IMG/VR virus record: IMGVR_UViG_3300010283_000006
Coordinates: 4,007 to 68,006 of that record
DNA from: a virus
Lineage: Duplodnaviria; Caudoviricetes
Reading direction: 5' to 3' (one strand)
Length of the DNA stretch: 64,000 nucleotides
Positions 9,640 through 61,222 of this stretch are shown in pieces. The number at the start of each line of letters is the position of its first letter. The first letter of the stretch is position 1. Made by a program: the position numbers and the translations under genes. The notes beneath the pieces were generated by a model that had not been told where the DNA came from, did not search any database, and was given only the letters and a program-made list of their open reading frames with translations.

Positions 9640-10092
9640 ATGAACGAAAATTTGATACCCAAAATAGCTGAAATGTTAGGGGTAACTCTTAATGAAAAAT
9701 TTAAGATTGATAAATATGGCAATAGGATATTTAAGTTTAGTGATGATAGCCTTTGGGAAAGAGTTGTAGAAGGTGATGATGAAAATCAATACGTTACTTG
9801 GGGCGAAAGCTTGCTCTGTCTAAAACAACTTCTTAATGGTAATGCTAAAGTTATCAAATTGCCGTGGAAACCGAAAGTGGGCGATACTTTCTATACTTTC
9901 GATTTAATTTATGGGAAATGGGTTGTTTGCTCATTTACACGAGCATGGATAGGTTCTCCTTCCAATTATGCTTTACTTGATAAAGGATGGATATATCGTA
10001 CAGCTAAAGAAGCACTGCAAAACTTACCTAAAGTTGCTAAAGAATACGATGTTCCGTGTTCCTTAGATGGACAATCTTACGAGGAAGATTAA
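9640..10092 (+). CDS. Hypothetical phage protein, paralog B (ORF track starts at 9529)
   Basis: AAAGGAG RBS before MNENLIPKI; same LGV/KFKI/KLPWKPK/GWI motifs as paralog A. Confidence 0.7.
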   Translation: MNENLIPKIAEMLGVTLNEKFKIDKYGNRIFKFSDDSLWERVVEGDDENQYVTWGESLLCLKQLLNGNAKVIKLPWKPKVGDTFYTFDLIYGKWVVCSFTRAWIGSPSNYALLDKGWIYRTAKEALQNLPKVAKEYDVPCSLDGQSYEED

Positions 10093-11222
10093 TGAAAATA
10101 GGAATTATTGACGCTGATTTAATTGGTAGAAAGAAACATTACTTTCCTAACCTTGTATGTATGAAGTTATCTGCGTGGCACAAGAAAAAAGGTGATAAAG
10201 TAAAGTTTTTAACTCAATATTATCACCTTACAGAATATGACAGAGTATATGTAGCTAAAGTATTTACAGATACACCTGTTCCTGACGAAGTTTTGAAAAT
10301 GTCTAATGTTATATATGGTGGTACTGGTTTCTTTTATGATAAAGCTGTTCCACTTATGTTTGAAATAGAACAGATTAAACCTGACTATCACCTATATGAC
10401 GAATATGTAAAACAAAAACTATCTGAAGGACAGAGTAGAGATAAATACAAATACTATCTTGATTATTCTATCGGTTTTGCTACTAGAGGTTGCTTTAGAA
10501 AATGCCCATTCTGCGTCAACCAAAATTCAGAGTACGTGACTTTACATTCTAATATTGTTGACTGGGTAGATAAAGACAGAAAGAAGATTTGTCTATTAGA
10601 CGATAATGTTTTGGGTGCTAAACAATGGCAATGGGTATTAGAAAAGCTAATACAGATTGGTAAGCCATTTCAGTTTAAGCAAGGATTAGACGAACGCTTA
10701 CTTACTCACGAAAAACTAGAATGTTTAAGAAATTGTAAGCTTGATGGTGATTTAATCTTTGCTTTTGATAACTTGGCTGACAAAAATATTATTATCTCAA
10801 AACTGAATCTGTTACGTATTTTCTTTCCAACTAAAAAGAATATAAAATTCTATGTTTTATGCGGATTTGATAGAGATAATAAATACGATAAAGAGTTTTG
10901 GATAAAAGATATTCATTCAGTATTTGAGCGTATCAAAATATTAGCTAATTATGGTTGCAAGCCTTATATTATGAGATTTGCAAAGTACAAAGAAAGTCCA
11001 TTTAAAGGTACTTATATTAACCTTGCAAGCTGGTGTAATCAGCCTAGTATATATGCTCATTATAGCTATCAAGATTACTGTTTAGAAAAAGACAAACAGC
11101 TTCACGATGATAGAAAATCTTCTACATACAGATATTACGAAGAATTTCTGCCTTATATGACAGAAGAAGAAAAGACTTTTCAATTTAAAGGGAGATACAA
11201 TTATGCAAGTAACGAATACTAG
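10092..11222 (+). CDS. Radical SAM protein with N-terminal B12-binding-like segment
   Basis: TRGCFRKCPFC (CxxxCxxC); N-terminal IGIIDAD...PNLVCMKLSAWHK..GD.V; LLDDNVL. Confidence 0.82.
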   Translation: MKIGIIDADLIGRKKHYFPNLVCMKLSAWHKKKGDKVKFLTQYYHLTEYDRVYVAKVFTDTPVPDEVLKMSNVIYGGTGFFYDKAVPLMFEIEQIKPDYHLYDEYVKQKLSEGQSRDKYKYYLDYSIGFATRGCFRKCPFCVNQNSEYVTLHSNIVDWVDKDRKKICLLDDNVLGAKQWQWVLEKLIQIGKPFQFKQGLDERLLTHEKLECLRNCKLDGDLIFAFDNLADKNIIISKLNLLRIFFPTKKNIKFYVLCGFDRDNKYDKEFWIKDIHSVFERIKILANYGCKPYIMRFAKYKESPFKGTYINLASWCNQPSIYAHYSYQDYCLEKDKQLHDDRKSSTYRYYEEFLPYMTEEEKTFQFKGRYNYASNEY

Positions 11223-15429: not shown

Positions 15430-16242
15430 TTATATAGCAGAGAATATATCTCTAACTTGTTCTCTATGTTGTTGGCTGATATGTAAGTATCTTTGCGTAG
15501 ATTGGATTGATTTATGTCTAAGATGTTCTTTAATTACGAATAGGTTAATATTATTATCCAACAAAGTTACTGCTGAACCATGCCTAAAGCTATGACAATG
15601 CAATTCAGGATAACCAGCTTTAATACAGATATTTTTAATCTCTCTATAAAAAGCTACATAACCAATCTGTGTATTATTTCTAGTATGTAGTAAGTAAGTG
15701 CTGTTATAATCTATATATTCTTTAATCATACTAGCTAAACCATCTGTGATATAAACTTTATAGTCATTATGGTTTTTCGTATCTACAAGAAGAATTGATT
15801 TTTCATCTGCATTATAATTAGCTGTTTTAATACTCAAAACTTCTTCAGCTCTTAAACCATTCTGAAACATTAAAGATACAGCTATCTTACTTCTTAGATG
15901 TGCACAATGGTATAGGATGCGATGATATTGTTCTTTACTGACTACTGCTGGAACAATAGTCTTAGTATCTACTGATTGTAAAACTTGCAAGATAACTGGT
16001 AGACCATCAATGGTGATGTAGTTAGATAAAAAATCAATAAACTTCTTTAATATCCTACATCTTAGAGCTTTAGTATTTACTGAACAATCCCATTGTTGTA
16101 ATTTACTATTGATAAAATCCAATTCCAAATTTACTTTTCCATCCGAAAACCAATTTTTAAAGGCATTACAATAAGTGGTATAAGTATTGGTGGCTCTAGT
16201 AGCCTTAACCGACGCAAGATATTGTTTCAGGTATAAATCCAT
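15430..16242 (-). CDS. XerC/D-like tyrosine recombinase (no arm-binding domain)
   Basis: GLRAEE (Arg I), HSFRH (HxxR), LRHKSI and TQRY (catalytic Tyr); 270 aa. Confidence 0.9.
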   Translation of the reverse strand: MDLYLKQYLASVKATRATNTYTTYCNAFKNWFSDGKVNLELDFINSKLQQWDCSVNTKALRCRILKKFIDFLSNYITIDGLPVILQVLQSVDTKTIVPAVVSKEQYHRILYHCAHLRSKIAVSLMFQNGLRAEEVLSIKTANYNADEKSILLVDTKNHNDYKVYITDGLASMIKEYIDYNSTYLLHTRNNTQIGYVAFYREIKNICIKAGYPELHCHSFRHGSAVTLLDNNINLFVIKEHLRHKSIQSTQRYLHISQQHREQVRDIFSAI

Positions 16243-42487: not shown

Positions 42488-45400
42488 TTGGGCAAAGGTG
42501 GTAAAAGTAAAGGTAAAATAGCATTTACATTAATCGGTGCTGTTGCTGGCGGTTTTCTTGCTACTGGCGGTTGGTTTGCTGGTATGGGTATGGGTGCTAG
42601 TTTTGGCGTAGGTGCTATGTATGGTGCTTCTTTAGCTAGTACATTATGGTCGGTGACACAAAAACCAAATAATTTAGGTAATCTTGATAGCGATTATTCA
42701 CAAGATGATTACTCTAGATTTAATACTGTTACTAATGATGTAAACCAAAATGCTTGTATTCCTGTTATTTATGGCACTCGTAAATATGGCGGTTTGCAAA
42801 CATGGCATAATCCTTATAATGGCAGTAGATATTTACAGAAAGATGTAGTTGTGTGTGAAGCTGGCGTAGATGGAATTTACAATGTAATGGCTAACGAAGA
42901 ACTAATTCGTGACGATACAAATATTTCTATTTATAACATTCAACACAAAGACGCTACTGTAAAAAGAAGTGGTAATACACTGATTTTATCTGCTGGTGGA
43001 AAAACACAAGAATACGCTTTAGGTAGTACAAACGATTATAATGCTCAAACTTCTCTTTTAAGTACAGTAATAGATAAAATCAAGAGTGAAGCTGGTAATG
43101 GTTGGAAGATAGATGGTGCTGTTGATGATAGAACATCTAAAGGTATTTCAGCTAATAGTATGCAGTTCAATAGCTCTACACCTGTTAATTGTTATTGTCC
43201 TGCTGATAATCCCTCTCGTAATAATATGGTAGTTCTTGATGTTCGTGGTTATAAGATTGGTACGTACAAAGTTCATCAAAATGAAGTTCCTGATAATTAT
43301 ATGGATGTTGGTGGTTATCCTAATTTAGCATGGATTAGAACAGATTTGGTTGCTAGTAGTAGATTGAGCGGTAGCAATCCTACAATTAATTCTGTCATTC
43401 GTGGTATGAGAGTAAAAGTTTTTCGTAATGGTAGTTGGTTTACAGAATACAGTGAAAATCCAGCATGGATAATTCGAGATTTTCTAACTTCTGAAAGATA
43501 TGGAACAGGTGCATATATTACCGAAGATATGCTAGATGATGATAGCTTTAAAGAAGTTGCTAGTTATTGTGACGAAGAAATAGAGTATGTAGACGAAAAT
43601 GGTAATAAACAAAAAACTGCTAGATATAAGCTAAATATTATTCTTGATAGTCAGAAAGCTCCTATTGAACATTTATCAAGTATGTTAGCTGTATTTGGTG
43701 GTTTTATTACTTTTGGCAGTCAGATAGCTTTAAAGATAGAGAAAGCAGAAGTTCCAGTTTACGCTTTTGACGATAGCACTATTGTAAAAGACAGTGTTTC
43801 GATTGGACAGACTTCTCTTGATGATACTCCTAATCGTTATAAAATTGGCTATTTCGACCCATCGCAATTATGGACAGAAGTAAAAGTGGTTGTTGAAGAT
43901 TTAGAAATGCAAGAAGAGCAAGAAGGTAAGATTACAGAAAAAACAGTTACTCTTGCTGGTTGTACTTCTCAAAATCAAGCTCTGCGTATTGGCAGATTAT
44001 ATCGTGATTTAAACAAAGTATGTTCTTTGACTATCAGCTTTAGTGTAGCTACACAAGGTATGATGTTGGAATGTGGTGATGTAGTTACAGTTACTTATGG
44101 TGGTATTTTTACTAAAATGCCATTTAGAATTACACAGATTGAAGAAACAAATACAGGTATTTATCAATTAACTTGTAGACAATATAATGCAAGTATTTAT
44201 AACGATAGCTTAGGAGCGCAGGTTGTTAATCCTAGTTATATTAACAACAATTCTAGCTATACTAAAATTCCACCTGTTGTCAGCGGATTAAAGTTAAAAG
44301 AAAATACAGTGACTAATGCAAACGGCACATTACAGATTGGTTTTGATGCAACATGGGATGAATTGTATTATGAGTATTTCGACCACTACGAAGTCAGCTA
44401 TTCTACTGATGGCTATAAATATATTGTAGGTACTAATACATTTGATAATACTGCATATGTAACGAATCTTATTAAAGGCAAATATTATGTGAGTGTACAG
44501 ATAGTTACCAAAGATGGTATCAAAGGTAGTCCTTGTATCGGTGAAATTGAATTAAGTGGCGTAGATGAACCACCTGATAATGTTTCTATGTTAGATACGG
44601 ATATTCTTGATGATGGTACAAGACGTTTTTGGTGGAGCTATAAATACCCTGAACCGAACGATATTGTTGGTTTTAAATTAAAATACACACAAGGTAATAA
44701 TCCTGATTGGAATAATGCCTACGAACTTCATACAGGCGTAATCACTATGCAACCTTTTGAAACGAAAGCTTTAAGACAGGGCGTACATACAGTAATGATT
44801 AAAGCTGTTGATAATGCTGGTAATGAAAGTAAAAATCCTGCTTATGCTGTTTTGAATTTAGGTGAGCCTTTACAGAATAATGTATTATGGAGTGTTGATT
44901 TATCAGCTAACGATTGGAGTTCTGTTAGCCATAATGGTATTAAAGAAAATGGAGTTATTAAAGCTCATACTAAGGATGATGTATTGGAAATCAATGCTCA
45001 ATTACAGCCTATGGCTTATGGTAATTTTTGGATTGAATACGAAATTGCTGGTAGTGCTACTGTTCAATATTGTGTCGGCTCAAATACAAACGCATGGCAA
45101 ACTGTTGATAGTGTAGCATGGGATAATCCTAATTCTCAGCAATGGAAGTTTAAAGGTTTATACAAGCCTTATACTGGTAAAGTTTTAATTAGTAGTACAG
45201 ATACAACGTATATCAAGATTATAGCAAAGAGTAATACAGATGTTATTCCTGCTGTATCTAAGTTAAAGGTATATATTGATGTTCCTGATAGACAAGAGAA
45301 CTTTGAAAATTTATCTATTCCTGTTACTGGACTAACATTACCAATCCAAACTCCATATTATTATACTACTGCTGTTAATGTCAGTGCTGTTCAGACAAAT

Positions 45401-45553
45401 ATTAAAGGTGAGTATGAGTTAGAGATTATGAATAAAACTCCTTGTAAGATTAGATTTAATAGACTTATTAAGGGAGCTACAATTAAACGTGAGCCTGTTG
45501 CTGTTGTTGCTGATATTATATGGCAAGGTTTCCAAAGAGAGGTGCTTACATAA
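42488..45553 (+). CDS. Tail tip/host-specificity protein (lambda gpJ-like, with FnIII domains)
   Basis: IPVIYG, YSENPAWIIRDFLTSERYG, GDVVTV and FnIII-like repeats. Confidence 0.88.
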   Translation: MGKGGKSKGKIAFTLIGAVAGGFLATGGWFAGMGMGASFGVGAMYGASLASTLWSVTQKPNNLGNLDSDYSQDDYSRFNTVTNDVNQNACIPVIYGTRKYGGLQTWHNPYNGSRYLQKDVVVCEAGVDGIYNVMANEELIRDDTNISIYNIQHKDATVKRSGNTLILSAGGKTQEYALGSTNDYNAQTSLLSTVIDKIKSEAGNGWKIDGAVDDRTSKGISANSMQFNSSTPVNCYCPADNPSRNNMVVLDVRGYKIGTYKVHQNEVPDNYMDVGGYPNLAWIRTDLVASSRLSGSNPTINSVIRGMRVKVFRNGSWFTEYSENPAWIIRDFLTSERYGTGAYITEDMLDDDSFKEVASYCDEEIEYVDENGNKQKTARYKLNIILDSQKAPIEHLSSMLAVFGGFITFGSQIALKIEKAEVPVYAFDDSTIVKDSVSIGQTSLDDTPNRYKIGYFDPSQLWTEVKVVVEDLEMQEEQEGKITEKTVTLAGCTSQNQALRIGRLYRDLNKVCSLTISFSVATQGMMLECGDVVTVTYGGIFTKMPFRITQIEETNTGIYQLTCRQYNASIYNDSLGAQVVNPSYINNNSSYTKIPPVVSGLKLKENTVTNANGTLQIGFDATWDELYYEYFDHYEVSYSTDGYKYIVGTNTFDNTAYVTNLIKGKYYVSVQIVTKDGIKGSPCIGEIELSGVDEPPDNVSMLDTDILDDGTRRFWWSYKYPEPNDIVGFKLKYTQGNNPDWNNAYELHTGVITMQPFETKALRQGVHTVMIKAVDNAGNESKNPAYAVLNLGEPLQNNVLWSVDLSANDWSSVSHNGIKENGVIKAHTKDDVLEINAQLQPMAYGNFWIEYEIAGSATVQYCVGSNTNAWQTVDSVAWDNPNSQQWKFKGLYKPYTGKVLISSTDTTYIKIIAKSNTDVIPAVSKLKVYIDVPDRQENFENLSIPVTGLTLPIQTPYYYTTAVNVSAVQTNIKGEYELEIMNKTPCKIRFNRLIKGATIKREPVAVVADIIWQGFQREVLT

Positions 45554-46435: not shown

Positions 46436-47494
46436 ATGGCAAGTAAAAATGTATTACTTCAAATGAAAATCGAAGATGTTTTAACAGATATTTTAGTACA
46501 GACTGGCTCTGATAATGTAATCGTAGATACAACAACAAATAAAACTCTGACAACTTATCTTTCTGAAATTGTAGCAAAGATTAATAATGTTCAGGGTTCA
46601 GCTACTAACGAAACACAAATTAAGGGTTGGATTAGTGAAGCTATTAGTAGTTTGATTGATGGTGCTCCTGAAACATACGATACTTTAAAAGAGATTGCTG
46701 ATTATATTTCCAATAACCAATCTGCTGTTGAAGCATTAAATAGTGCTATTGGAACTAAAGTAGATAAGGAAGAAGGTAAAGGTTTATCTGCAAATGATTT
46801 TACAGATGTTTTAAAAAATAAATTAGATGGCATTACTGCAAATGCTAATAAAACAGAGAAATCCGCTACTAATGGTAATATCAAGATTGATGGCAAAGAA
46901 GTTAATGTTTATACACATCCTAATACTGCTGGCAGTAAGCATATTCCTCTAGGTGGTTCTTTAGGACAAGTTTTACAAAACAATGGTAATGGTAGTGTTG
47001 GCTGGGCAGACAGTCAAATACGTGAAATATGTAGTAATGAGTTGGTACTTAGTGCCTTTCCTGCTGATTTTAGTAAATATCTGCAAACAGTAAAAGTAAC
47101 ATCTAGTATTACCAAAGATACTCCTATATATACTTATGATACTATGTGGTTGCCTTCAGCAACAGAAATGTACATAGATACAACGAAAATAATGCCATAT
47201 GGTTTTACGCAAATAGCTGAAGGTAATGATAATGAAAAATATTGGAAAGATGTAATGAAAGTATCAAGTAAATTTGATATAAATTATTCGACTAACGAAA
47301 AATTACAATCTGCTGATGTTGCTTATCCATATTGGTTACGTTCTAGTGCTTTTAGTGTAGCACCAAAAGCACCTAACGATTATACTTACACGTATAAGTA
47401 TAATATTTATTATGTAGATGCAAATGGACATATACAAGTTGCTAAAGGTAACGAAAAAAAAGCTAGTGTTAGATTAATGTGTTTCTTTGCTTAG
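46436..47494 (+). CDS. Tail fibre/receptor-binding protein with DUF6273-like C-terminus
   Basis: GAPETYDTLKEIA and KVDKEEGKGLSANDFT fibre motifs; WLPSATEM...YWLRSS C-terminal domain. Confidence 0.65.
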   Translation: MASKNVLLQMKIEDVLTDILVQTGSDNVIVDTTTNKTLTTYLSEIVAKINNVQGSATNETQIKGWISEAISSLIDGAPETYDTLKEIADYISNNQSAVEALNSAIGTKVDKEEGKGLSANDFTDVLKNKLDGITANANKTEKSATNGNIKIDGKEVNVYTHPNTAGSKHIPLGGSLGQVLQNNGNGSVGWADSQIREICSNELVLSAFPADFSKYLQTVKVTSSITKDTPIYTYDTMWLPSATEMYIDTTKIMPYGFTQIAEGNDNEKYWKDVMKVSSKFDINYSTNEKLQSADVAYPYWLRSSAFSVAPKAPNDYTYTYKYNIYYVDANGHIQVAKGNEKKASVRLMCFFA

Positions 47495-47506: not shown

Positions 47507-47893
47507 ATGAATATAGCTAATATTAAACTTCCTGAAGAATGGCAGTTGGACTTATATAAAAAAGAAAAAATCTCTAAGCTAAAAAGTGACAGAGATAATA
47601 AAGAAGTAGAACCGATAAAATACAATGGTTTTTTATATGATTATGATAGTAAAGCTAGAGAAAGAATAAATGCAGCTATCATTGCTTTAGATGATATGGG
47701 TGCTGGTTCTAGAATAAATTGGACAACTTATAATAACTATGATGTATTAGTTACAGCTAATGATTTACGTAAAATTATTGCAAATGTAGCTATTAGAAGT
47801 AATAAATTACACACAGTTTATAGGCTTGCTAAAGAGAAAGTAGAACAGGCTACAACTAAAGAAGAAGTAGATAAAATTACATTAGAGCTTTAA
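47507..47893 (+). CDS. DUF4376-like fibre-associated protein, copy 1
   Basis: YDYDSKARERI...INWTTYNN...T.NDL. Confidence 0.7.
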   Translation: MNIANIKLPEEWQLDLYKKEKISKLKSDRDNKEVEPIKYNGFLYDYDSKARERINAAIIALDDMGAGSRINWTTYNNYDVLVTANDLRKIIANVAIRSNKLHTVYRLAKEKVEQATTKEEVDKITLEL

Positions 47894-47918: not shown

Positions 47919-48725
47919 ATGGCAGAAACAATTCCTAAGTTAATAACTGATGTGGAAAAATACTTCCAGTACGAAGGCTCTGCTAATCCAACTACACAAG
48001 ATGAATTGCAAGCTTTTATGAAGAACGAGCATAGTGTAGTAGCTTGTTTGACTAAAAAGTTATGGCAACCTGAAACCAACTATACACAAGGGCAGATTGT
48101 TGAAAGTCCAAATATGCCAGTTGGTTTTTATGCGGTTGCTTTAGTTAATGGTACATCTTATAGTAATGAGCCTGACTGGGGTAATGGTAGTACCGATATT
48201 TCTGATGGTAGTATGAAGTGGTATATGACTAAAGGTAATATTACAGTTAATGGTGTAAAGCCTGATGATAGCGGTAATATACAGATTGATAATATTGCTC
48301 ATGCGAATAATGCAGATAATGCTACTAAAGCTACAAACGATAGTAAGGGACAAAATATTACTGGTTACGTAAAAAAAATTGGGGGCAATAACAGTAGTTT
48401 AGTTATTACTGATGGTAATGGCAATGAAAGTACAATTAATATTGCTACTGACGCTAACCCTTTTACTAAAAATATTAATGTGACAGCAAGTACGCAGGAA
48501 ACTATAAAGCCTACTATGAGTGTATCAGTATCAACCAATCGTAGTACCAGCGTGGGTGTTAGTATTAGTAATACAATAGATACAATTACTGGTTTGAAAG
48601 CTGGAACTTATACATTACAAACACTCTTGCAGAATTTAGTAAATCAAAGTCATAAACACAGTAAAATTAACATAAGCGCATCGGATTCAGACGGTAATTG
48701 CGATTGTTGTGGCTCTGATTCTTAA
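47919..48725 (+). CDS. Tail fibre protein with switchable C-terminal tip (variant A expressed in this orientation)
   Basis: LWQPETNYTQG and TVNGVKPDDSGNI fibre motifs; ends SHKH...NCDCCGSDS; crosses inverted repeat at 48484-48497. Confidence 0.8.
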   Translation: MAETIPKLITDVEKYFQYEGSANPTTQDELQAFMKNEHSVVACLTKKLWQPETNYTQGQIVESPNMPVGFYAVALVNGTSYSNEPDWGNGSTDISDGSMKWYMTKGNITVNGVKPDDSGNIQIDNIAHANNADNATKATNDSKGQNITGYVKKIGGNNSSLVITDGNGNESTINIATDANPFTKNINVTASTQETIKPTMSVSVSTNRSTSVGVSISNTIDTITGLKAGTYTLQTLLQNLVNQSHKHSKINISASDSDGNCDCCGSDS

Positions 48726-48978
48726 CTATCAGAATCACCTGCACAGCAATTACAGTTTTTATAACTATTATAATGATATGTTGTATGCGTGTGAGATTTA
48801 TCAACCAGTTGTTGTAAAAGATTTTTAAGTGTGTAAGTTCCACCGCTTAAACCTGTATTTGTTCTAAACTGTACGTACCCTGTATAAGTATCGCCTTTAC
48901 CAACATCTTCGTTAATATCGTAAACATTACAACTAGCTTCACTACTGCTGATAGTTCTATATCTCTGCGTACTTGCTG
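48484..48978. mobile_element. Putative 495-bp invertible DNA cassette bounded by 14-bp inverted repeats CAGCAAGTACGCAG
   Basis: IR at 48484-48497 (+) and 48965-48978 (-); inversion keeps frame (ASTQ) and joins an 80-aa paralogous tip. Confidence 0.85.
48722..48964 (-). CDS. Silent alternative C-terminus (variant B) of the tail fibre; no start codon
   Basis: RYRTISSSEASCNVYDINEDVGKGDTYTGYVQFRTNTGLSGGTYTLKNLLQQLVDKSHTHTTYHYNSYKNCNCCAGDSDS*. Confidence 0.85.
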   Translation of the reverse strand, partial: RYRTISSSEASCNVYDINEDVGKGDTYTGYVQFRTNTGLSGGTYTLKNLLQQLVDKSHTHTTYHYNSYKNCNCCAGDSDS

Positions 48979-49004: not shown

Positions 49005-49895
49005 TTGATAGAACTTAGCCGTGTTTGTATTCCATTAGGGTTAGATTGTAACTTTAAATGTAGATATTGTTATCGTGATTTTTGTCGCAAACAAATACCA
49101 ACTAAATTATCTAATTGTGTAAAAGAATATTTAAAACAGCTTACACCTGATAAAACAGAAAGCGTGTGTATGTCAGGTGGCGAACCTTTAATTTATTGGA
49201 ATACTATTAAAGAAATATATAGTTATCTTCCTAAAGATATTCACTTGAAAATAATGACTAACGGAAGTTTATTAACGCAAGAAATTATAGATTTTGTTAA
49301 CCAAAATAATGCTGAAATTTTCTTTAGTCACGATGGTATTCAAACAAAGTATCTTAGAGGGATAGATGTACTAGAGGATAAAAATAAACTACAATTAATT
49401 AAACAAGTTAAAAATTTAGTTGTTGCTAGTGTAATCACTAATCGTAATGAAGATTTAGTAAAAAATTATCAATATATCAGTGAAAAGTTACAAAGAGAAG
49501 ATTTTGTATATAGATTTACCAATTTAATGGATACTGGTTATGTAGATGATTTGATAAAGGGATTTAACTATGATGTATTTGCTAGGAGTTATAGAGAATA
49601 TACTGAAAACTATAAAACAGAAGTTCCTTATTACAATAGAATAGAGCGTAATAAAAAGTATAATATGGGTGGCTTTAATGTGGATTTAGATGGTAATGTT
49701 ATAGGTATGAATACATTAAAGAAGTATGGCACGATATACAATACATATGAGGAATGTTATCAAAAAATGTTAGAGGTAGAGAATTTATATTGTACTAAAG
49801 TTAATTGTCCTTTAATTTTTAATTGCCAAACAGTTAAACAAGGTGTAAGTGAACATACTTGTAAATGTGTGAAAGCTATGAATGGAGTTTTATGA
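49005..49895 (+). CDS. Radical SAM protein 1 (reduced SPASM)
   Basis: CNFKCRYC, SGGEP, IMTNG; C-terminal Cys cluster; TTG start after AAGGTG. Confidence 0.85.
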   Translation: MIELSRVCIPLGLDCNFKCRYCYRDFCRKQIPTKLSNCVKEYLKQLTPDKTESVCMSGGEPLIYWNTIKEIYSYLPKDIHLKIMTNGSLLTQEIIDFVNQNNAEIFFSHDGIQTKYLRGIDVLEDKNKLQLIKQVKNLVVASVITNRNEDLVKNYQYISEKLQREDFVYRFTNLMDTGYVDDLIKGFNYDVFARSYREYTENYKTEVPYYNRIERNKKYNMGGFNVDLDGNVIGMNTLKKYGTIYNTYEECYQKMLEVENLYCTKVNCPLIFNCQTVKQGVSEHTCKCVKAMNGVL

Positions 49896-50959
49896 TGAGT
49901 ATAGATAGAAAATACGATATATTAAATGTTAAAACCATATATCTTATGATGGGATTTAATTGTAATTTTAGATGTAGACATTGTATACAGGATAGTTGCA
50001 ATACATCTATACAAAAAAATAATATTAGCAAAGATGTAATAGATTACTTAAATCGGCTAATAAATATTAGACCAACAAGCTATGATAAAATTACTATAAT
50101 GTTTTGGGGTGGAGAACCATTAATTTATTGGAATACTATTAAAGATGTAATTGATATTTTTCATGATAAATTCAGTTATTCTATGGTAACTAATGGCAGT
50201 TTACTTACGCAAGATAAGGTTGATTATATTAATAAATATCAAATAAAAGTGGCACTGTCTTATGACGGGAAGAACACTGATAAAGTTCGTATGGTAAATG
50301 TATTACAAGATAAGGATAAGTTAGAATTATTTAAGCAGATAAAAAATAAAAGCATCTGTGCAGTAAGTTCTGCTTATAATTATGATTATCAAGAATTATA
50401 CAATCATATAGATGAATTAATTGATACGGAAATTCCAGTAGGTATTGAACAATTTAGAGTAACTTGGGATATGCCAAAAGATTTATATGATATTGATTTA
50501 GTAGAATATCGAGATAAATTACATGAGTTAGCTATACAAGCAAAAGAAGATATTTTAAACGTAAAATATAGTAGACCAGTTAGTTTTTTCTTAAAACACT
50601 TATGGGGATTATGTTATACAGATAAGATGTATAGTTTGAAATGCGGGCAAATGTATAATAAGTTAAATATTGACTTACAGGGAAATATATATTCTTGCCA
50701 TAACTTGTGTAATCCTATCGGTACTGTGCGTGATGATAGGGTTAGTTTGGTTAATAAACAGGATAGATGGGTAAGTGATAATTTACCTACTAACTGTAAA
50801 AACTGTAAATATTACATTGTATGTAATGGTGGTTGTCCAAATGAATTAATTAAAGATGGTGAGCGCATTTCTTGTAAGATTAATAAGGTAATATTTGATG
50901 AAGTGTTTTGGTTGGCTAATGAATTAGAGAATAGTTTTATGTGTGTAGATTTGGGGTGA
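49892..50959 (+). CDS. Radical SAM/SPASM protein 2
   Basis: CNFRCRHC, WGGEP, VTNG, SYDG; SPASM CGQ...GNIYSCH...CKNC...CNGGCP...C. Confidence 0.9.
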   Translation: MMSIDRKYDILNVKTIYLMMGFNCNFRCRHCIQDSCNTSIQKNNISKDVIDYLNRLINIRPTSYDKITIMFWGGEPLIYWNTIKDVIDIFHDKFSYSMVTNGSLLTQDKVDYINKYQIKVALSYDGKNTDKVRMVNVLQDKDKLELFKQIKNKSICAVSSAYNYDYQELYNHIDELIDTEIPVGIEQFRVTWDMPKDLYDIDLVEYRDKLHELAIQAKEDILNVKYSRPVSFFLKHLWGLCYTDKMYSLKCGQMYNKLNIDLQGNIYSCHNLCNPIGTVRDDRVSLVNKQDRWVSDNLPTNCKNCKYYIVCNGGCPNELIKDGERISCKINKVIFDEVFWLANELENSFMCVDLG

Positions 50960-50963
50960 TATT

Positions 50964-51722
50964 TTGAAAGTTAAGATTATTCATAAAGAGTATATAGAAA
51001 ACAAAAGTTATGATGAAGAAGGCAATGAACTAAAGAACGAACAACAAGAAGAATATAAATCTCCATATGAAATTACTTTAGATGGCGATATTCTTAATAT
51101 TAAAGTATCTACTAAATATCATAATAAAGATGTAGAATTTTCTACTCAATTTGATTTATCCAATCAAGATGATAAATTGCTAGAAGTTTTGCTTAGAGAT
51201 AGTATGAATGGAACAGAGCTTAGCTGTTATGAAATTTTTAAATTTGTAGATACTATCACTGGAACAAGAAATTATTCTTACAATGGCGATAAGATTTGTA
51301 GAGTGCTTATTGATAAGGAAAATAATACTTGCTGGATATATTTGTTTTTACGTACTAAAGATATTAATGGTTTTAAAAATGTATTACAGAAAACAAATAT
51401 ATCTACAACTGGTATGTTACAATCCGTATGTCCTTGGTTTAAACAGCGTTGTGTAGACATTGAACGAAAAAGAAAGCTTATTAATGAAGTAGATATTTAT
51501 AAATCTATTGCTTATCTTGAAGCACAGGTAGATTTATTAACAAGGTTGGTTATTCAATATGCACCTAAATCAAAATTAGTAGAGTTATTGGAGATTGCGG
51601 ATAAATATTCTGTTTTAAATAACAAGCCTGACGAAGATATAAAAAATGAGTTTGAAGTAAGTAAAGCTGATTTTAGAAAGAAACAGGAAGATTACTATGA
51701 GCGAGTGCAAAAAACCTTATAA
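50964..51722 (+). CDS. Hypothetical protein within the radical SAM cluster
   Basis: Coupled ORF; C-terminal coiled-coil. Confidence 0.6.
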   Translation: MKVKIIHKEYIENKSYDEEGNELKNEQQEEYKSPYEITLDGDILNIKVSTKYHNKDVEFSTQFDLSNQDDKLLEVLLRDSMNGTELSCYEIFKFVDTITGTRNYSYNGDKICRVLIDKENNTCWIYLFLRTKDINGFKNVLQKTNISTTGMLQSVCPWFKQRCVDIERKRKLINEVDIYKSIAYLEAQVDLLTRLVIQYAPKSKLVELLEIADKYSVLNNKPDEDIKNEFEVSKADFRKKQEDYYERVQKTL

Positions 51723-52713
51723 ATCGCTGGTGTTAAAATTAGGTGGACAATGTAATTTAAACTGCAAATATTGTCACTGTAAGCGTGTAGATTTTAAATT
51801 CAATCCCGATATATATAAATATATAGAGGATAATGGATATAATCATATTGTATTTAGTGGCGGTGAGCCGCTGTTATATTGGAATATTATTAAAGAAGTT
51901 ATAGAGCATTTTGGCGATAGTATTAGGTATAGGCTTGTTAGTAATGGGAATTTACTTAACAAGGAAATAGTAGATTTTCTCAATGAATATGATGTTTATT
52001 ATTGCGTATCTTATGATGGTAAAAATAATTTTAGCCGTGATATAAATAGTGCTATTCGATGGAGAGAATTTGCTAAAATTAACAATATCGGATTTGCCAC
52101 GTTGTATAGTTATAGTAATGAGGATATTAATAAATTACTGCAAGATATAGAAAGCGAAATCAATCGTTATCACTTAAATATAAATATTGGCACAAGGCAT
52201 ATTAATTTCCCGCATTCTACAAATATTAACAAGAATGATATGATTGATAGAGAGTTGGCAAAGAAGTATTGTATGATTATATGTAGGTTTTTGGAATTAG
52301 ATTTTATTAAGCTAAAATCTATAAACGATTATAAACAAGTTAATTGGTTTAAAGATTTTCCAGTTATAAAGAAATGTTTTGAGAGGTATATAAAAAAACA
52401 AGAAATCCGTGGAGTTAAATGTTGTAATGAGAATATTACTCCAATGACTATCGAAGGGAAGTTTTTATTATGTCCTTATGATGAACAGTATGTTGGTGAT
52501 ATTTATACTGGTATTGACTGGGATAAAGTTGAAAGTTATATTCCTGATAGATGTAAAGGTTGCCCGCAATGGAAATCTTGTATGAATACTTGCATCGCAA
52601 ATGTTACGGATAATGAGTGCTATATTAGTAAAGTAATATATAAGCATTTTTACAAACTCATGGATAAATACAATTATGATTATAATTTTATGAATGAACA
52701 TATTACGAGGTGA
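51697..52713 (+). CDS. Radical SAM/SPASM protein 3
   Basis: CNLNCKYC, SGGEP, VSNG, SYDG; KCC...LLCPY...CKGC...CMNTC...C. Confidence 0.88.
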   Translation: MSECKKPYKSLVLKLGGQCNLNCKYCHCKRVDFKFNPDIYKYIEDNGYNHIVFSGGEPLLYWNIIKEVIEHFGDSIRYRLVSNGNLLNKEIVDFLNEYDVYYCVSYDGKNNFSRDINSAIRWREFAKINNIGFATLYSYSNEDINKLLQDIESEINRYHLNINIGTRHINFPHSTNINKNDMIDRELAKKYCMIICRFLELDFIKLKSINDYKQVNWFKDFPVIKKCFERYIKKQEIRGVKCCNENITPMTIEGKFLLCPYDEQYVGDIYTGIDWDKVESYIPDRCKGCPQWKSCMNTCIANVTDNECYISKVIYKHFYKLMDKYNYDYNFMNEHITR

Positions 52714-52717
52714 TAAG

Positions 52718-53170
52718 ATGGAATTTGAATATGCTATTAAATTAGCTTTAGGCATTACTGCTTTAGAAGATATTCCTATTATGTTTAGGGATAAAGCTAG
52801 TGATTTACAGAATACAGAAGAATTACTGGAGTACGTTCGCAGTAAACAATGGGAAGAAATTAAGGTGAATAGAGATAATGCAGAAACAAGTGGGTTGCCG
52901 TTTAAAGATAAAATTCTTGATTATGATATGCGTAGTGCTTTTAAACTAGATATTGCTATGGAAACAGCTAAACAAGTTGGGGAAGGTTTTTCTATTGATT
53001 GGACTATGCAGGATAATACAGTAATGACTTTAACTTATTCTGATTTGTTATCTATTCCGTTAATTGCGGCTAATTATTCTAATGAATTACATAAGAAAGC
53101 TAGAATTTATCGTGATAAGATTTATAATGAAACAGATATTAAAGCTATTGCTAAAATCAAATGGGAGTAG
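52718..53170 (+). CDS. DUF4376-like protein, copy 2
   Basis: LDYDMRSAFKL...IDWTMQDN...LTYSDL; paralog of 47507-47893. Confidence 0.7.
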   Translation: MEFEYAIKLALGITALEDIPIMFRDKASDLQNTEELLEYVRSKQWEEIKVNRDNAETSGLPFKDKILDYDMRSAFKLDIAMETAKQVGEGFSIDWTMQDNTVMTLTYSDLLSIPLIAANYSNELHKKARIYRDKIYNETDIKAIAKIKWE

Positions 53171-53173
53171 ACA

Positions 53174-54175
53174 ATGGATAGGTTATTACAGGTTCATCTT
53201 AGCGAAAAATGTAATTTAAAATGTAAGCATTGTTATCAAGAAGGGAAAGATTGTAAGTCTTTTATAGATTTGCAGTCTTTTTCTGTTTTATTAGACCAGT
53301 TCAAAGAGCTAACTGACTATACTAAATGTGATAAAATGACTATGAACTTAACGGGTGGCGAACCATTGTTGTTTAAGAATATTTTAGATTATATTGATTT
53401 AGCACGAGCTAAAGGTGTTGGTAAAATTAGGTTACTTACAAATGGCTTATTATTAACTAGAGAATTATTACAACAGCTAAAAGATAGAGATATTGGTATT
53501 CAAGTATCTATTGAAGGAACAAGAGAATGTAATGATTTTATTCGTGGTAAAGGTTCATTTGATAAAATTTTAAAAAGCATTTCTTTAGCTAAGTCTATGG
53601 ATATAGATATATTAGTATCTTACACTCTTAATGGTTGGAATTGTGAATTTGTATCTGATACAATAGATGAAGTTTATAGAGCTGGTGCTAAAGGAATATG
53701 GTTTGATAGAGTTATTCCATTTAATAATAATATTCCAATTATGACAGAAGAACAGTTTATATATACGATGCAAACTATTAGAGATAAGAAAGAACAATAT
53801 AAAGATAGTAATTTTAATGTTCAACTACAAAGAGCTATGCAATTTTTCTTTAATGATTGTAGCAGTTGCTATCGTTGTAGTGCTATTAATAGAGCTTTTA
53901 CTGTTCTATCTAATGGAGATATTCTTCCATGTAGACGTATGCCTATTTCACTTGGTAATTTTAAGTCAAGAACATTACTAGATATTTATAAAAGTAATAG
54001 TTGTCAAAAGTTAGGTGAGGCTATAAATAGTATTTCTGATGAATGTAATGGTTGTGAGTATATAAATTATTGCAAAGGTGGTTTAAGATGCTTAACTTAC
54101 GCTTTGCATGGCACTTTCAACAAAGGAGATGTACATTGTCCGGTTTTAGCTCTTAAACAATTAGAAAGTAGGTGA
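53174..54175 (+). CDS. Radical SAM/SPASM protein 4 (canonical SPASM)
   Basis: CNLKCKHC, TGGEP, LTNG; CSA...GDILPCRR...CNGC...CKGG.RC...C. Confidence 0.9.
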   Translation: MDRLLQVHLSEKCNLKCKHCYQEGKDCKSFIDLQSFSVLLDQFKELTDYTKCDKMTMNLTGGEPLLFKNILDYIDLARAKGVGKIRLLTNGLLLTRELLQQLKDRDIGIQVSIEGTRECNDFIRGKGSFDKILKSISLAKSMDIDILVSYTLNGWNCEFVSDTIDEVYRAGAKGIWFDRVIPFNNNIPIMTEEQFIYTMQTIRDKKEQYKDSNFNVQLQRAMQFFFNDCSSCYRCSAINRAFTVLSNGDILPCRRMPISLGNFKSRTLLDIYKSNSCQKLGEAINSISDECNGCEYINYCKGGLRCLTYALHGTFNKGDVHCPVLALKQLESR

Positions 54176-60911: not shown

Positions 60912-61222
60912 AAAATAAAGTAGTCTATGTTTACGAAAATCACGCTGGCGGTGATAATTTTATCAGTGATAAAGAATATACTGATGAAGAATTATATTGT
61001 GAAGAATGTAGAGATAGTGATAGACTACTTTATAAAGGCACATACGATGAAATTCTTACTTTGTTAAAGAAAGATATTAAGAAGGCTCAACGTATCTATA
61101 AAAAGGCTAATACTGACAATGAAAGGTTTGATGCAGAATTTGAACTTGATAGAGCTGTATCTAACTATCAATATATTAATAACTTGCTTAATCAGTATTT
61201 TTGGGATAGAGAGGAAGAATAA
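60908..61222 (+). CDS. Hypothetical protein inside the dnaE split
   Basis: YVYENHAGG...CEEC.DSD motif. Confidence 0.6.
   Translation: MKNKVVYVYENHAGGDNFISDKEYTDEELYCEECRDSDRLLYKGTYDEILTLLKKDIKKAQRIYKKANTDNERFDAEFELDRAVSNYQYINNLLNQYFWDREEE

Follow-up and report, generated by a model that had tools for sequence, protein, structure and literature searches.

A very probable two-state DNA inversion switch in a tail fibre gene of an uncultured gut phage

Described inversion switches and the present locus

Gin-type inversion systems combine 26-bp dyad-symmetric crossover sites with a Fis-bound recombinational enhancer. Serine invertases of this type switch the C-termini of tail fibres in Mu (Gin, G segment), P1 (Cin, C segment), p15B (Min), and e14 (Pin) (PMC6109161). 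In these switches a constant fibre N-terminus is joined by inversion to alternative promoterless C-termini, which lie as two cassettes tail to tail in a segment of 3 to 4 kb beside the recombinase gene, and the outcome is an alternative receptor specificity. The first phage shufflon driven by a tyrosine invertase, Rin of Bifidobacterium prophages, was described by Mavrich et al. in 2018 (PMC6109161). Here the crossover site is short (11 bp), asymmetric, and in frame at the start of the variable C-termini; several cassettes are exchanged, the armless XerD-like recombinase is encoded directly beside them, and the phages carry a canonical integrase as well. Rin shufflons reportedly occur in Eggerthella prophages too.

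A third kind is known from bifidophages 689b-1 / Bb423phi2, in which an orphan inversion of about 500 bp takes place at an 8-bp repeat with no flanking recombinase, and for which the authors proposed an invertase supplied in trans (PMC6109161). In addition, a survey of gene-altering programmed inversions in RefSeq bacterial genomes found phage tail fibre genes to be a significantly enriched target class, the signature being a gene, an inverted partial pseudogene-like copy of it, and short inverted repeats (PMC9881135).

Here, we describe a locus at 48484 to 48978 that is, with high probability, a simple two-state DNA inversion switch in a tail fibre (probable receptor-binding) gene. The window analyzed is a stretch of 64,000 nucleotides, bases 4007 to 68006 of a 68,006-bp IMG/VR virus record estimated to be 97% complete, with a GC content of about 31% across its length. 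The phage appears to belong to an uncultured, low-GC gut lineage with no relative among GenBank phages, in which the fibre protein (268 aa) has no protein match and the fibre gene upstream of it gave only short, low-coverage matches. Relatives of the J protein (63 to 70% identity) occur in two Negativicutes genomes with a GC content of 41 to 43%, versus 31% in the phage, and may give a weak hint of the host at the class level. A search for a host flank by way of the 372-aa integrase gave no exact product.

The arrangement resembles the Gin, Cin, Min, and Pin switches in its constant fibre N-terminus, its alternative promoterless C-termini brought in by inversion, and its two tail-to-tail cassettes, and the outcome would likewise be an alternative receptor specificity. 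It differs from them in having no invertase adjoining the segment and no serine recombinase in the genome, and in its size, the segment being 0.5 kb long, without a cassette-specific assembly-chaperone gene, between repeats of 14 to 17 nt. With Rin it shares a short in-frame repeat at the 5' end of each cassette that is rare elsewhere in the genome (two copies in all, the repeat being 14 to 17 nt against 11 bp), alternative arrangements, found here between relatives in two lineages, and a genome that encodes both a canonical integrase and an armless recombinase. Unlike in the Rin phages, however, the armless recombinase lies 32 kb away, as a candidate only, and there are two cassettes rather than several.

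Since the genome lacks a serine recombinase, no tyrosine recombinase adjoins the segment, and the cassettes number only two, we assign the switch to the class of orphan inversions of about 0.5 kb, which is a descriptive class and not a sequence family (PMC6109161), rather than to the Gin or Rin kind. As in 689b-1 / Bb423phi2, the 3' end of a structural gene is swapped with a small dissimilar segment, but the bifidophage sequences, host phylum, and site are unrelated to those of the present phage, which in turn offers matches to tail fibre folds, 21 loci of two lineages, and Cys-repeat tips beside radical SAM genes. The signature of the bacterial survey is also seen here, in a phage lineage without a GenBank phage relative, whereas the survey covered RefSeq bacterial genomes.

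That a phage changes its receptor-binding end by DNA inversion is a known mode, and the present switch works like Gin and Rin. What is new is how small the cassette is, that the invertase is distant or absent, and that the tips form an unnamed Cys-repeat family beside radical SAM genes; the invertase question and this tip family are the parts most worth pursuing. The locus extends tail fibre inversion switches to an uncultured low-GC gut phage lineage and indicates that two cassettes of about 80 codons, set between 14-nt sites and lacking a nearby invertase gene, can suffice for a switch. Annotation pipelines and inverton finders would overlook it if they require a neighbouring recombinase or longer repeats.

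The fibre gene and its two cassettes

Genes for a J-like central tail fibre, a tail fibre protein, and a DUF4376 protein precede the switched gene, and the lysis genes lie further on (Table 1). No sequence match to the fibre protein was found in Pfam, PHROG, or PDB. An AlphaFold model of it (mean pLDDT, 78.7; above 90 for residues 11 to 100) has as its best fold matches in BFVD baseplate wedge, tail fibre, and L-shaped tail fibre proteins (E values from 6e-10 to 1e-4), and Foldseek against PDB returned only weak matches, led by the tailspike of cyanophage Pam1 (E = 0.05), with chitin-binding modules next. Given the tail module context and the BFVD matches to tail fibre and baseplate proteins, the identification as a tail fibre with an exchangeable tip is well supported, and the protein probably binds the receptor.

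Table 1. Coordinates of the switch, its gene neighbourhood, and the tyrosine recombinases of the genome (window positions unless stated otherwise)
Feature	Position	Strand	Remarks
Tail fibre / receptor-binding protein gene as assembled (state A)	47919..48725	+	268 aa; ORF and translation
Constant N-terminal part of the fibre	47919..48483	+	Residues 1-188; nearly identical in A-state and B-state relatives
Invertible segment	48484..48978		495 bp including both repeats
Left inverted repeat/crossover site	48484-48497	+	CAGCAAGTACGCAG; codons A-S-T-Q
Right inverted repeat/crossover site	48965-48978	-	CAGCAAGTACGCAG
Expressed tip A	48498..48725	+	75 codons after ASTQ, plus stop (79-codon tip with ASTQ)
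Silent tip B	48722..48964	-	80 codons after ASTQ, plus stop (84-codon tip with ASTQ); own start codon and promoter absent
J-like central tail fibre	42488-45553		Upstream of the switched fibre gene
Tail fibre protein	46436-47494		Upstream of the switched fibre gene
DUF4376 protein (tail-fibre-associated)	47507..47893	+	Just upstream of the fibre gene, outside the invertible segment
Four radical SAM genes (last with SPASM domain), 252-aa unknown gene, second DUF4376 gene	49005..54175	+	
Armless Xer-like tyrosine recombinase, candidate trans-acting invertase	15430..16242	-	270 aa; PF00589, 93 bits
Canonical tyrosine integrase	G000:C1:217-1335 (locus L004)	-	372 aa; left end of the record, upstream of the window

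The first-pass annotation, made from the sequence alone, had described a 14-mer lying in frame inside the fibre gene and again, inverted, beyond its end, with a startless minus-strand frame of 80 codons read from the second copy. A repeat search confirmed the two copies, and scanning for further copies of CAGCAAGTACGCAG gave none, whether as many as 2 mismatches were allowed in the window or 1 in the full 68,006-bp record. The minus-strand frame is open from beyond 49030 to a stop at 48724-48722 and has no ATG, GTG, or TTG upstream of the cassette, its sole start being an internal GTG at 48843 (58-aa ORF). The overlap of the two stop codons in a single TTAA (48722-48725) was borne out as well. 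The repeat is read in the same codon phase in the fibre gene and in the minus-strand frame (xCA GCA AGT ACG CAG, encoding x-A-S-T-Q).

The claim that the silent frame is paralogous to the expressed tip also stands. BLASTP aligns the two with 24 identities in 49 positions (E = 2e-12), confined to the C-terminal half, where both tips have the scaffold GTYTL..LLQ.LV..SH.H followed by a Cys-rich end; the roughly 35 residues after ASTQ cannot be aligned.

A 14-nt repeat by itself proves nothing, being within chance expectation in this AT-rich window: perfect 14-nt inverted repeats within 1 kb number 3, against 0.9 expected from Markov-1 simulations. What makes it meaningful is the codon phase together with the paralogous open frame and, most of all, the relatives in which the segment is flipped. 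Besides this one, the window has perfect inverted repeats of at least 14 nt within 1 kb at 51335-51403 and 60915-61033.

Recombination between the inverted A-S-T-Q-encoding sites of 14 to 17 nt would flip the 495-bp segment, and the constant 188-residue N-terminal part would then be joined in frame either to tip A, expressed here, or to tip B, silent here. The exchange would be catalysed by a site-specific recombinase acting from a distance. With two cassettes and two sites present in all 21 loci, fewer than the three or more cassettes that define a shufflon, the two-state character proposed at first reading is upheld.

Both orientations among relatives

A search of 5.8 billion proteins with fibre residues 150 to 268 as the query returned five clusters. 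One of them (P0003) is 98% identical to the fibre protein of the window, and another (P0006, 273 aa) shares its N-terminus as far as ASTQ, after which tip B follows. Tip B is joined in frame to the constant part both in P0006 and in the P0021-P0034 cluster (18 member sequences), and overall the protein clusters hold 23 distinct member sequences in state A and 18 in state B. Among the 21 loci fetched, which are assembled contigs from different samples, 12 are in state A, and the flipped state B was found in 9, across two lineages. In the flipped form the junction falls exactly at the ASTQ codons and in frame, which agrees with the earlier claim that flipping the 495 bp keeps the frame.

The clearest pair comes from different sequencing runs. 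Loci L010 (state A) and L009 (state B) are identical at 499 of 500 positions in the left flank and 799 of 800 in the right, while the 467-bp middle matches at 466 of 467 positions only as the reverse complement (270/494 in the same orientation); apart from the flip, 3 bases differ in about 1,770. This is a clean inversion between otherwise near-identical phages, and finding such phages in other samples with the 0.5-kb piece reversed is the reason for regarding the DNA switch as real. Both states are also seen in a second, more divergent lineage, in which L012, L013, and L014 express tip A' with B' silent and L011 shows the reverse; its repeat, CAGCAAGCACGCAGGAA, carries the same synonymous T-to-C change in both arms. 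In the B-state loci L009, L025, L026, and L039-L043 it is tip A that lies inverted and silent, and the ASTQ-R junction variant that is silent in the window belongs to the expressed tip in L039-L041. A maximum-likelihood tree built from 780 bases of the flanks implies no fewer than 3 switches between the states, and well-supported branches force 2 of these.

The relatives also help to narrow down the site of exchange. In L009, L010, and L012 the repeat extends to 17 nt, in L018 and L025 to 15 nt, and the arms have only these 14 to 17 nt in common, their flanking sequences being different. Bases 15 to 17 beside the core always stay with the cassette (GAA for A; GAA, GGA, or AGA for B), which places the strand exchange inside a core of 14 to 15 nt.

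Constraint on the minus-strand frame in homologues, whose absence the first-pass annotation would have counted against the switch, is likewise visible. The silent frame lacks a stop codon in 21 of 21 loci and takes length changes in frame, for example an extra Cys-Asp pair in L018. Comparison of the two lineages gives dN/dS values of 0.31 (tip A) and about 0.5 (tip B), with dS at 0.7 to 0.85, whichever copy is silent. Among close relatives, tip differences comprise 0 to 1 synonymous versus 5 to 13 nonsynonymous changes. The invertible segment is a divergence hot spot: L009 and L018 differ at 21 of 473 positions in it versus 5 of 950 in the flanks, and across L009, L018, and L025 there are 21 to 28 differences in 473 nt versus 5 to 8 in 950 nt. 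Such a pattern is what would be expected of a receptor-contacting surface under diversifying selection. The tips share a scaffold and yet differ completely in the approximately 35 residues that follow ASTQ, so a change of receptor specificity is the most likely effect of the switch. It would also change host range, judging from the position in the tail module, the tail-fibre-like fold, and the excess of amino acid changes in the tips.

Searches of IMG/VR added little on the tips. With the fibre as the query, three loci were found, none with the same tip (L005 has another C-terminus, L006 is cut, and L007 is a weak match); in L005, from another phage, fibre residues 1 to 126 are joined to an unrelated C-terminus. 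A match to tip B (L008) proved spurious, and the tip profile found only one locus (L038). Several short contigs from different assemblers end alike past the right repeat, L023 and L026 at 36 nt and L013 and L024 at 69 to 70 nt, positions that fall just inside the first radical SAM gene. We rejected these ends as a sign of mixed orientation, as they are not at the repeat; they more probably stem from strain mixtures at the module boundary, perhaps with differing tip modules ahead of radical SAM genes held in common.

In L015, which carries a single tip of a third type, there is neither a silent cassette nor a repeat, and the first radical SAM gene begins 38 bp past the stop. By comparison, the 280-bp "intergenic" stretch of the window is an extra cassette.

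No match to the serine recombinase families PF00239 and PF07508 was found at E ≤ 1 in the 68-kb record (97% complete), for which controls matched, and in the gene lists of relatives no recombinase Pfam match lies within 10 kb on either side of the switch, so the absence of an invertase beside it, noted at first reading, holds. A separate earlier note had taken the 270-aa enzyme for the only recombinase, which the 372-aa integrase upstream of the window refutes. No reverse transcriptase (PF00078) was matched in the genome, and a diversity-generating retroelement was therefore rejected as the source of tip variation.

The 270-aa enzyme, 32 kb from the switch, is the nearest PF00589 match. Its best NCBIfam matches are XerA, XerC, and XerD, all far below cut-off, and the arm-binding N-terminal region is absent. 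We favour a tyrosine recombinase and rank this enzyme first, because an armless Xer-like recombinase next to a canonical integrase in one genome is the arrangement described for the Rin phages (PMC6109161); its role as the invertase is put forward tentatively. This 270-aa recombinase and the 14-nt site make a pair on which inversion in trans can be tested directly. Homologues with 44% identity are encoded in G002, where the tip is cut off, and in G329, where there is no match to the tip family; G171 has neither recombinase nor tip, and G001 is an incomplete genome.

The flips could also be real and made not by a phage enzyme but by a host-encoded invertase acting in trans, comparable to master invertases such as Mpi of Bacteroides. 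The lack of a recombinase within 10 kb, the missing link between the phage Xer-like enzyme and the tip family in both distant relatives that allowed a check, and the same proposal made for the orphan bifidophage inversion of about 500 bp by Mavrich et al. 2018 (PMC6109161) all point this way, whereas a phage that already encodes an armless tyrosine recombinase and a canonical integrase, as described for Rin phages, argues against it; we regard a host enzyme as somewhat unlikely.

It is improbable that the inversions arise from general, homology-driven recombination on 14 to 17 nt of microhomology, perhaps by an exonuclease/annealing pair, as occasional rather than programmed events. The repeat is indeed the longest identical stretch common to the two cassettes, an exonuclease gene at 2111-2971 is followed by an unassigned 244-aa gene, and the dedicated invertase is so far a candidate. 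However, all 21 loci are joined at the same site with no hybrid cassettes formed through the GTYTL...SH.H region, at least 3 flips are placed among phages with less than 1% flank difference, and the silent frame is intact everywhere. Moreover, 14 to 17 nt is very short for homologous exchange.

That A and B are old fixed alleles, or mis-assemblies, with no switching today is very improbable: the evidence does come from assembled contigs, and no sample among those looked up contained both states, but the same two junctions were recovered by assemblers and projects independent of one another (Logan, ENA, IMG), very few bases besides the flip set L009 apart from L010, the state is scattered over the flank tree, and short-read assemblers do not invert 467 bp between repeats of 14 to 17 nt, shorter than their k-mers.

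The tip family and its radical SAM neighbourhood

Returning to the inversion switch, its two tips (48486-48722, plus strand; 48725-48976, minus strand) fall within an unnamed C-terminal module, for which a 79-position profile recovers 196 representative clusters. No Pfam or PHROG match to the module was found, and a PDB sequence search with the profile gave no significant match. Its members begin with (V)T(A/K)STQ and continue with a variable stretch, a GxxAGTYTLQxLLQxLVNxSHTH helix (HxH motif), and Asn/Asp-Cys repeats. The crossover site thus falls at the conserved STQ with which the module opens. Distant, non-inverted family members keep the ASTQ motif as well, so part of the conservation of the repeat could be at the protein level. 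In some members (P0094, P0084, and P0146) a Hint domain, associated with intein-like autoprocessing (PF05203/PF01079), directly follows the SHTH helix in place of the Cys repeats, which suggests alternative ways of maturing the fibre end.

The gene set at 49005..54175 is kept behind the switch in all relatives, and a search of the stretch from the fibre gene to the first radical SAM gene showed no terminator-like site. Radical SAM/SPASM genes stand behind a tip gene in four separate contexts: the window, L015, L016, and L028, of which L016 is a Phascolarctobacterium MAG prophage with two fibres that carry the tip module. The enzymes of the window match best, far below cut-offs, to maturases of the PapB-type ranthipeptide, SCIFF, and QhpD kinds. 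A distal phage Xer-like or a host enzyme may act in trans on the 14-nt core, and the switch may toggle the substrates of a four-enzyme radical SAM/SPASM system that cross-links the Cys/Asx-rich tip end; as a whole, this combined reading is doubtful. If true, a switch of host range would be superimposed on a receptor-binding tip of the virion that is matured after translation in a RiPP-like manner. The two tips in any case provide a natural variant pair with which to study radical SAM action on a virion protein.

A different layout is found in a distant branch of the family. The locus at L028:102-1891 contains a tipless fibre N-part (211 aa), three tandem tip ORFs on the same strand (82, 110, and 121 aa), and radical SAM genes, with each tip ORF preceded by a DGxxKWxL motif like that of residues 96 to 103 of the window protein. 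These tandem ORFs may be another way of carrying several tips. L028-L030 were rejected as inverted cassettes, the small tip ORFs being on the same strand. Finally, at a great distance from the fibre cluster, the early/replication region of the window contains the gene for a fifth radical SAM protein (10056-11222, plus strand; phrog_9298, E = 2e-51).
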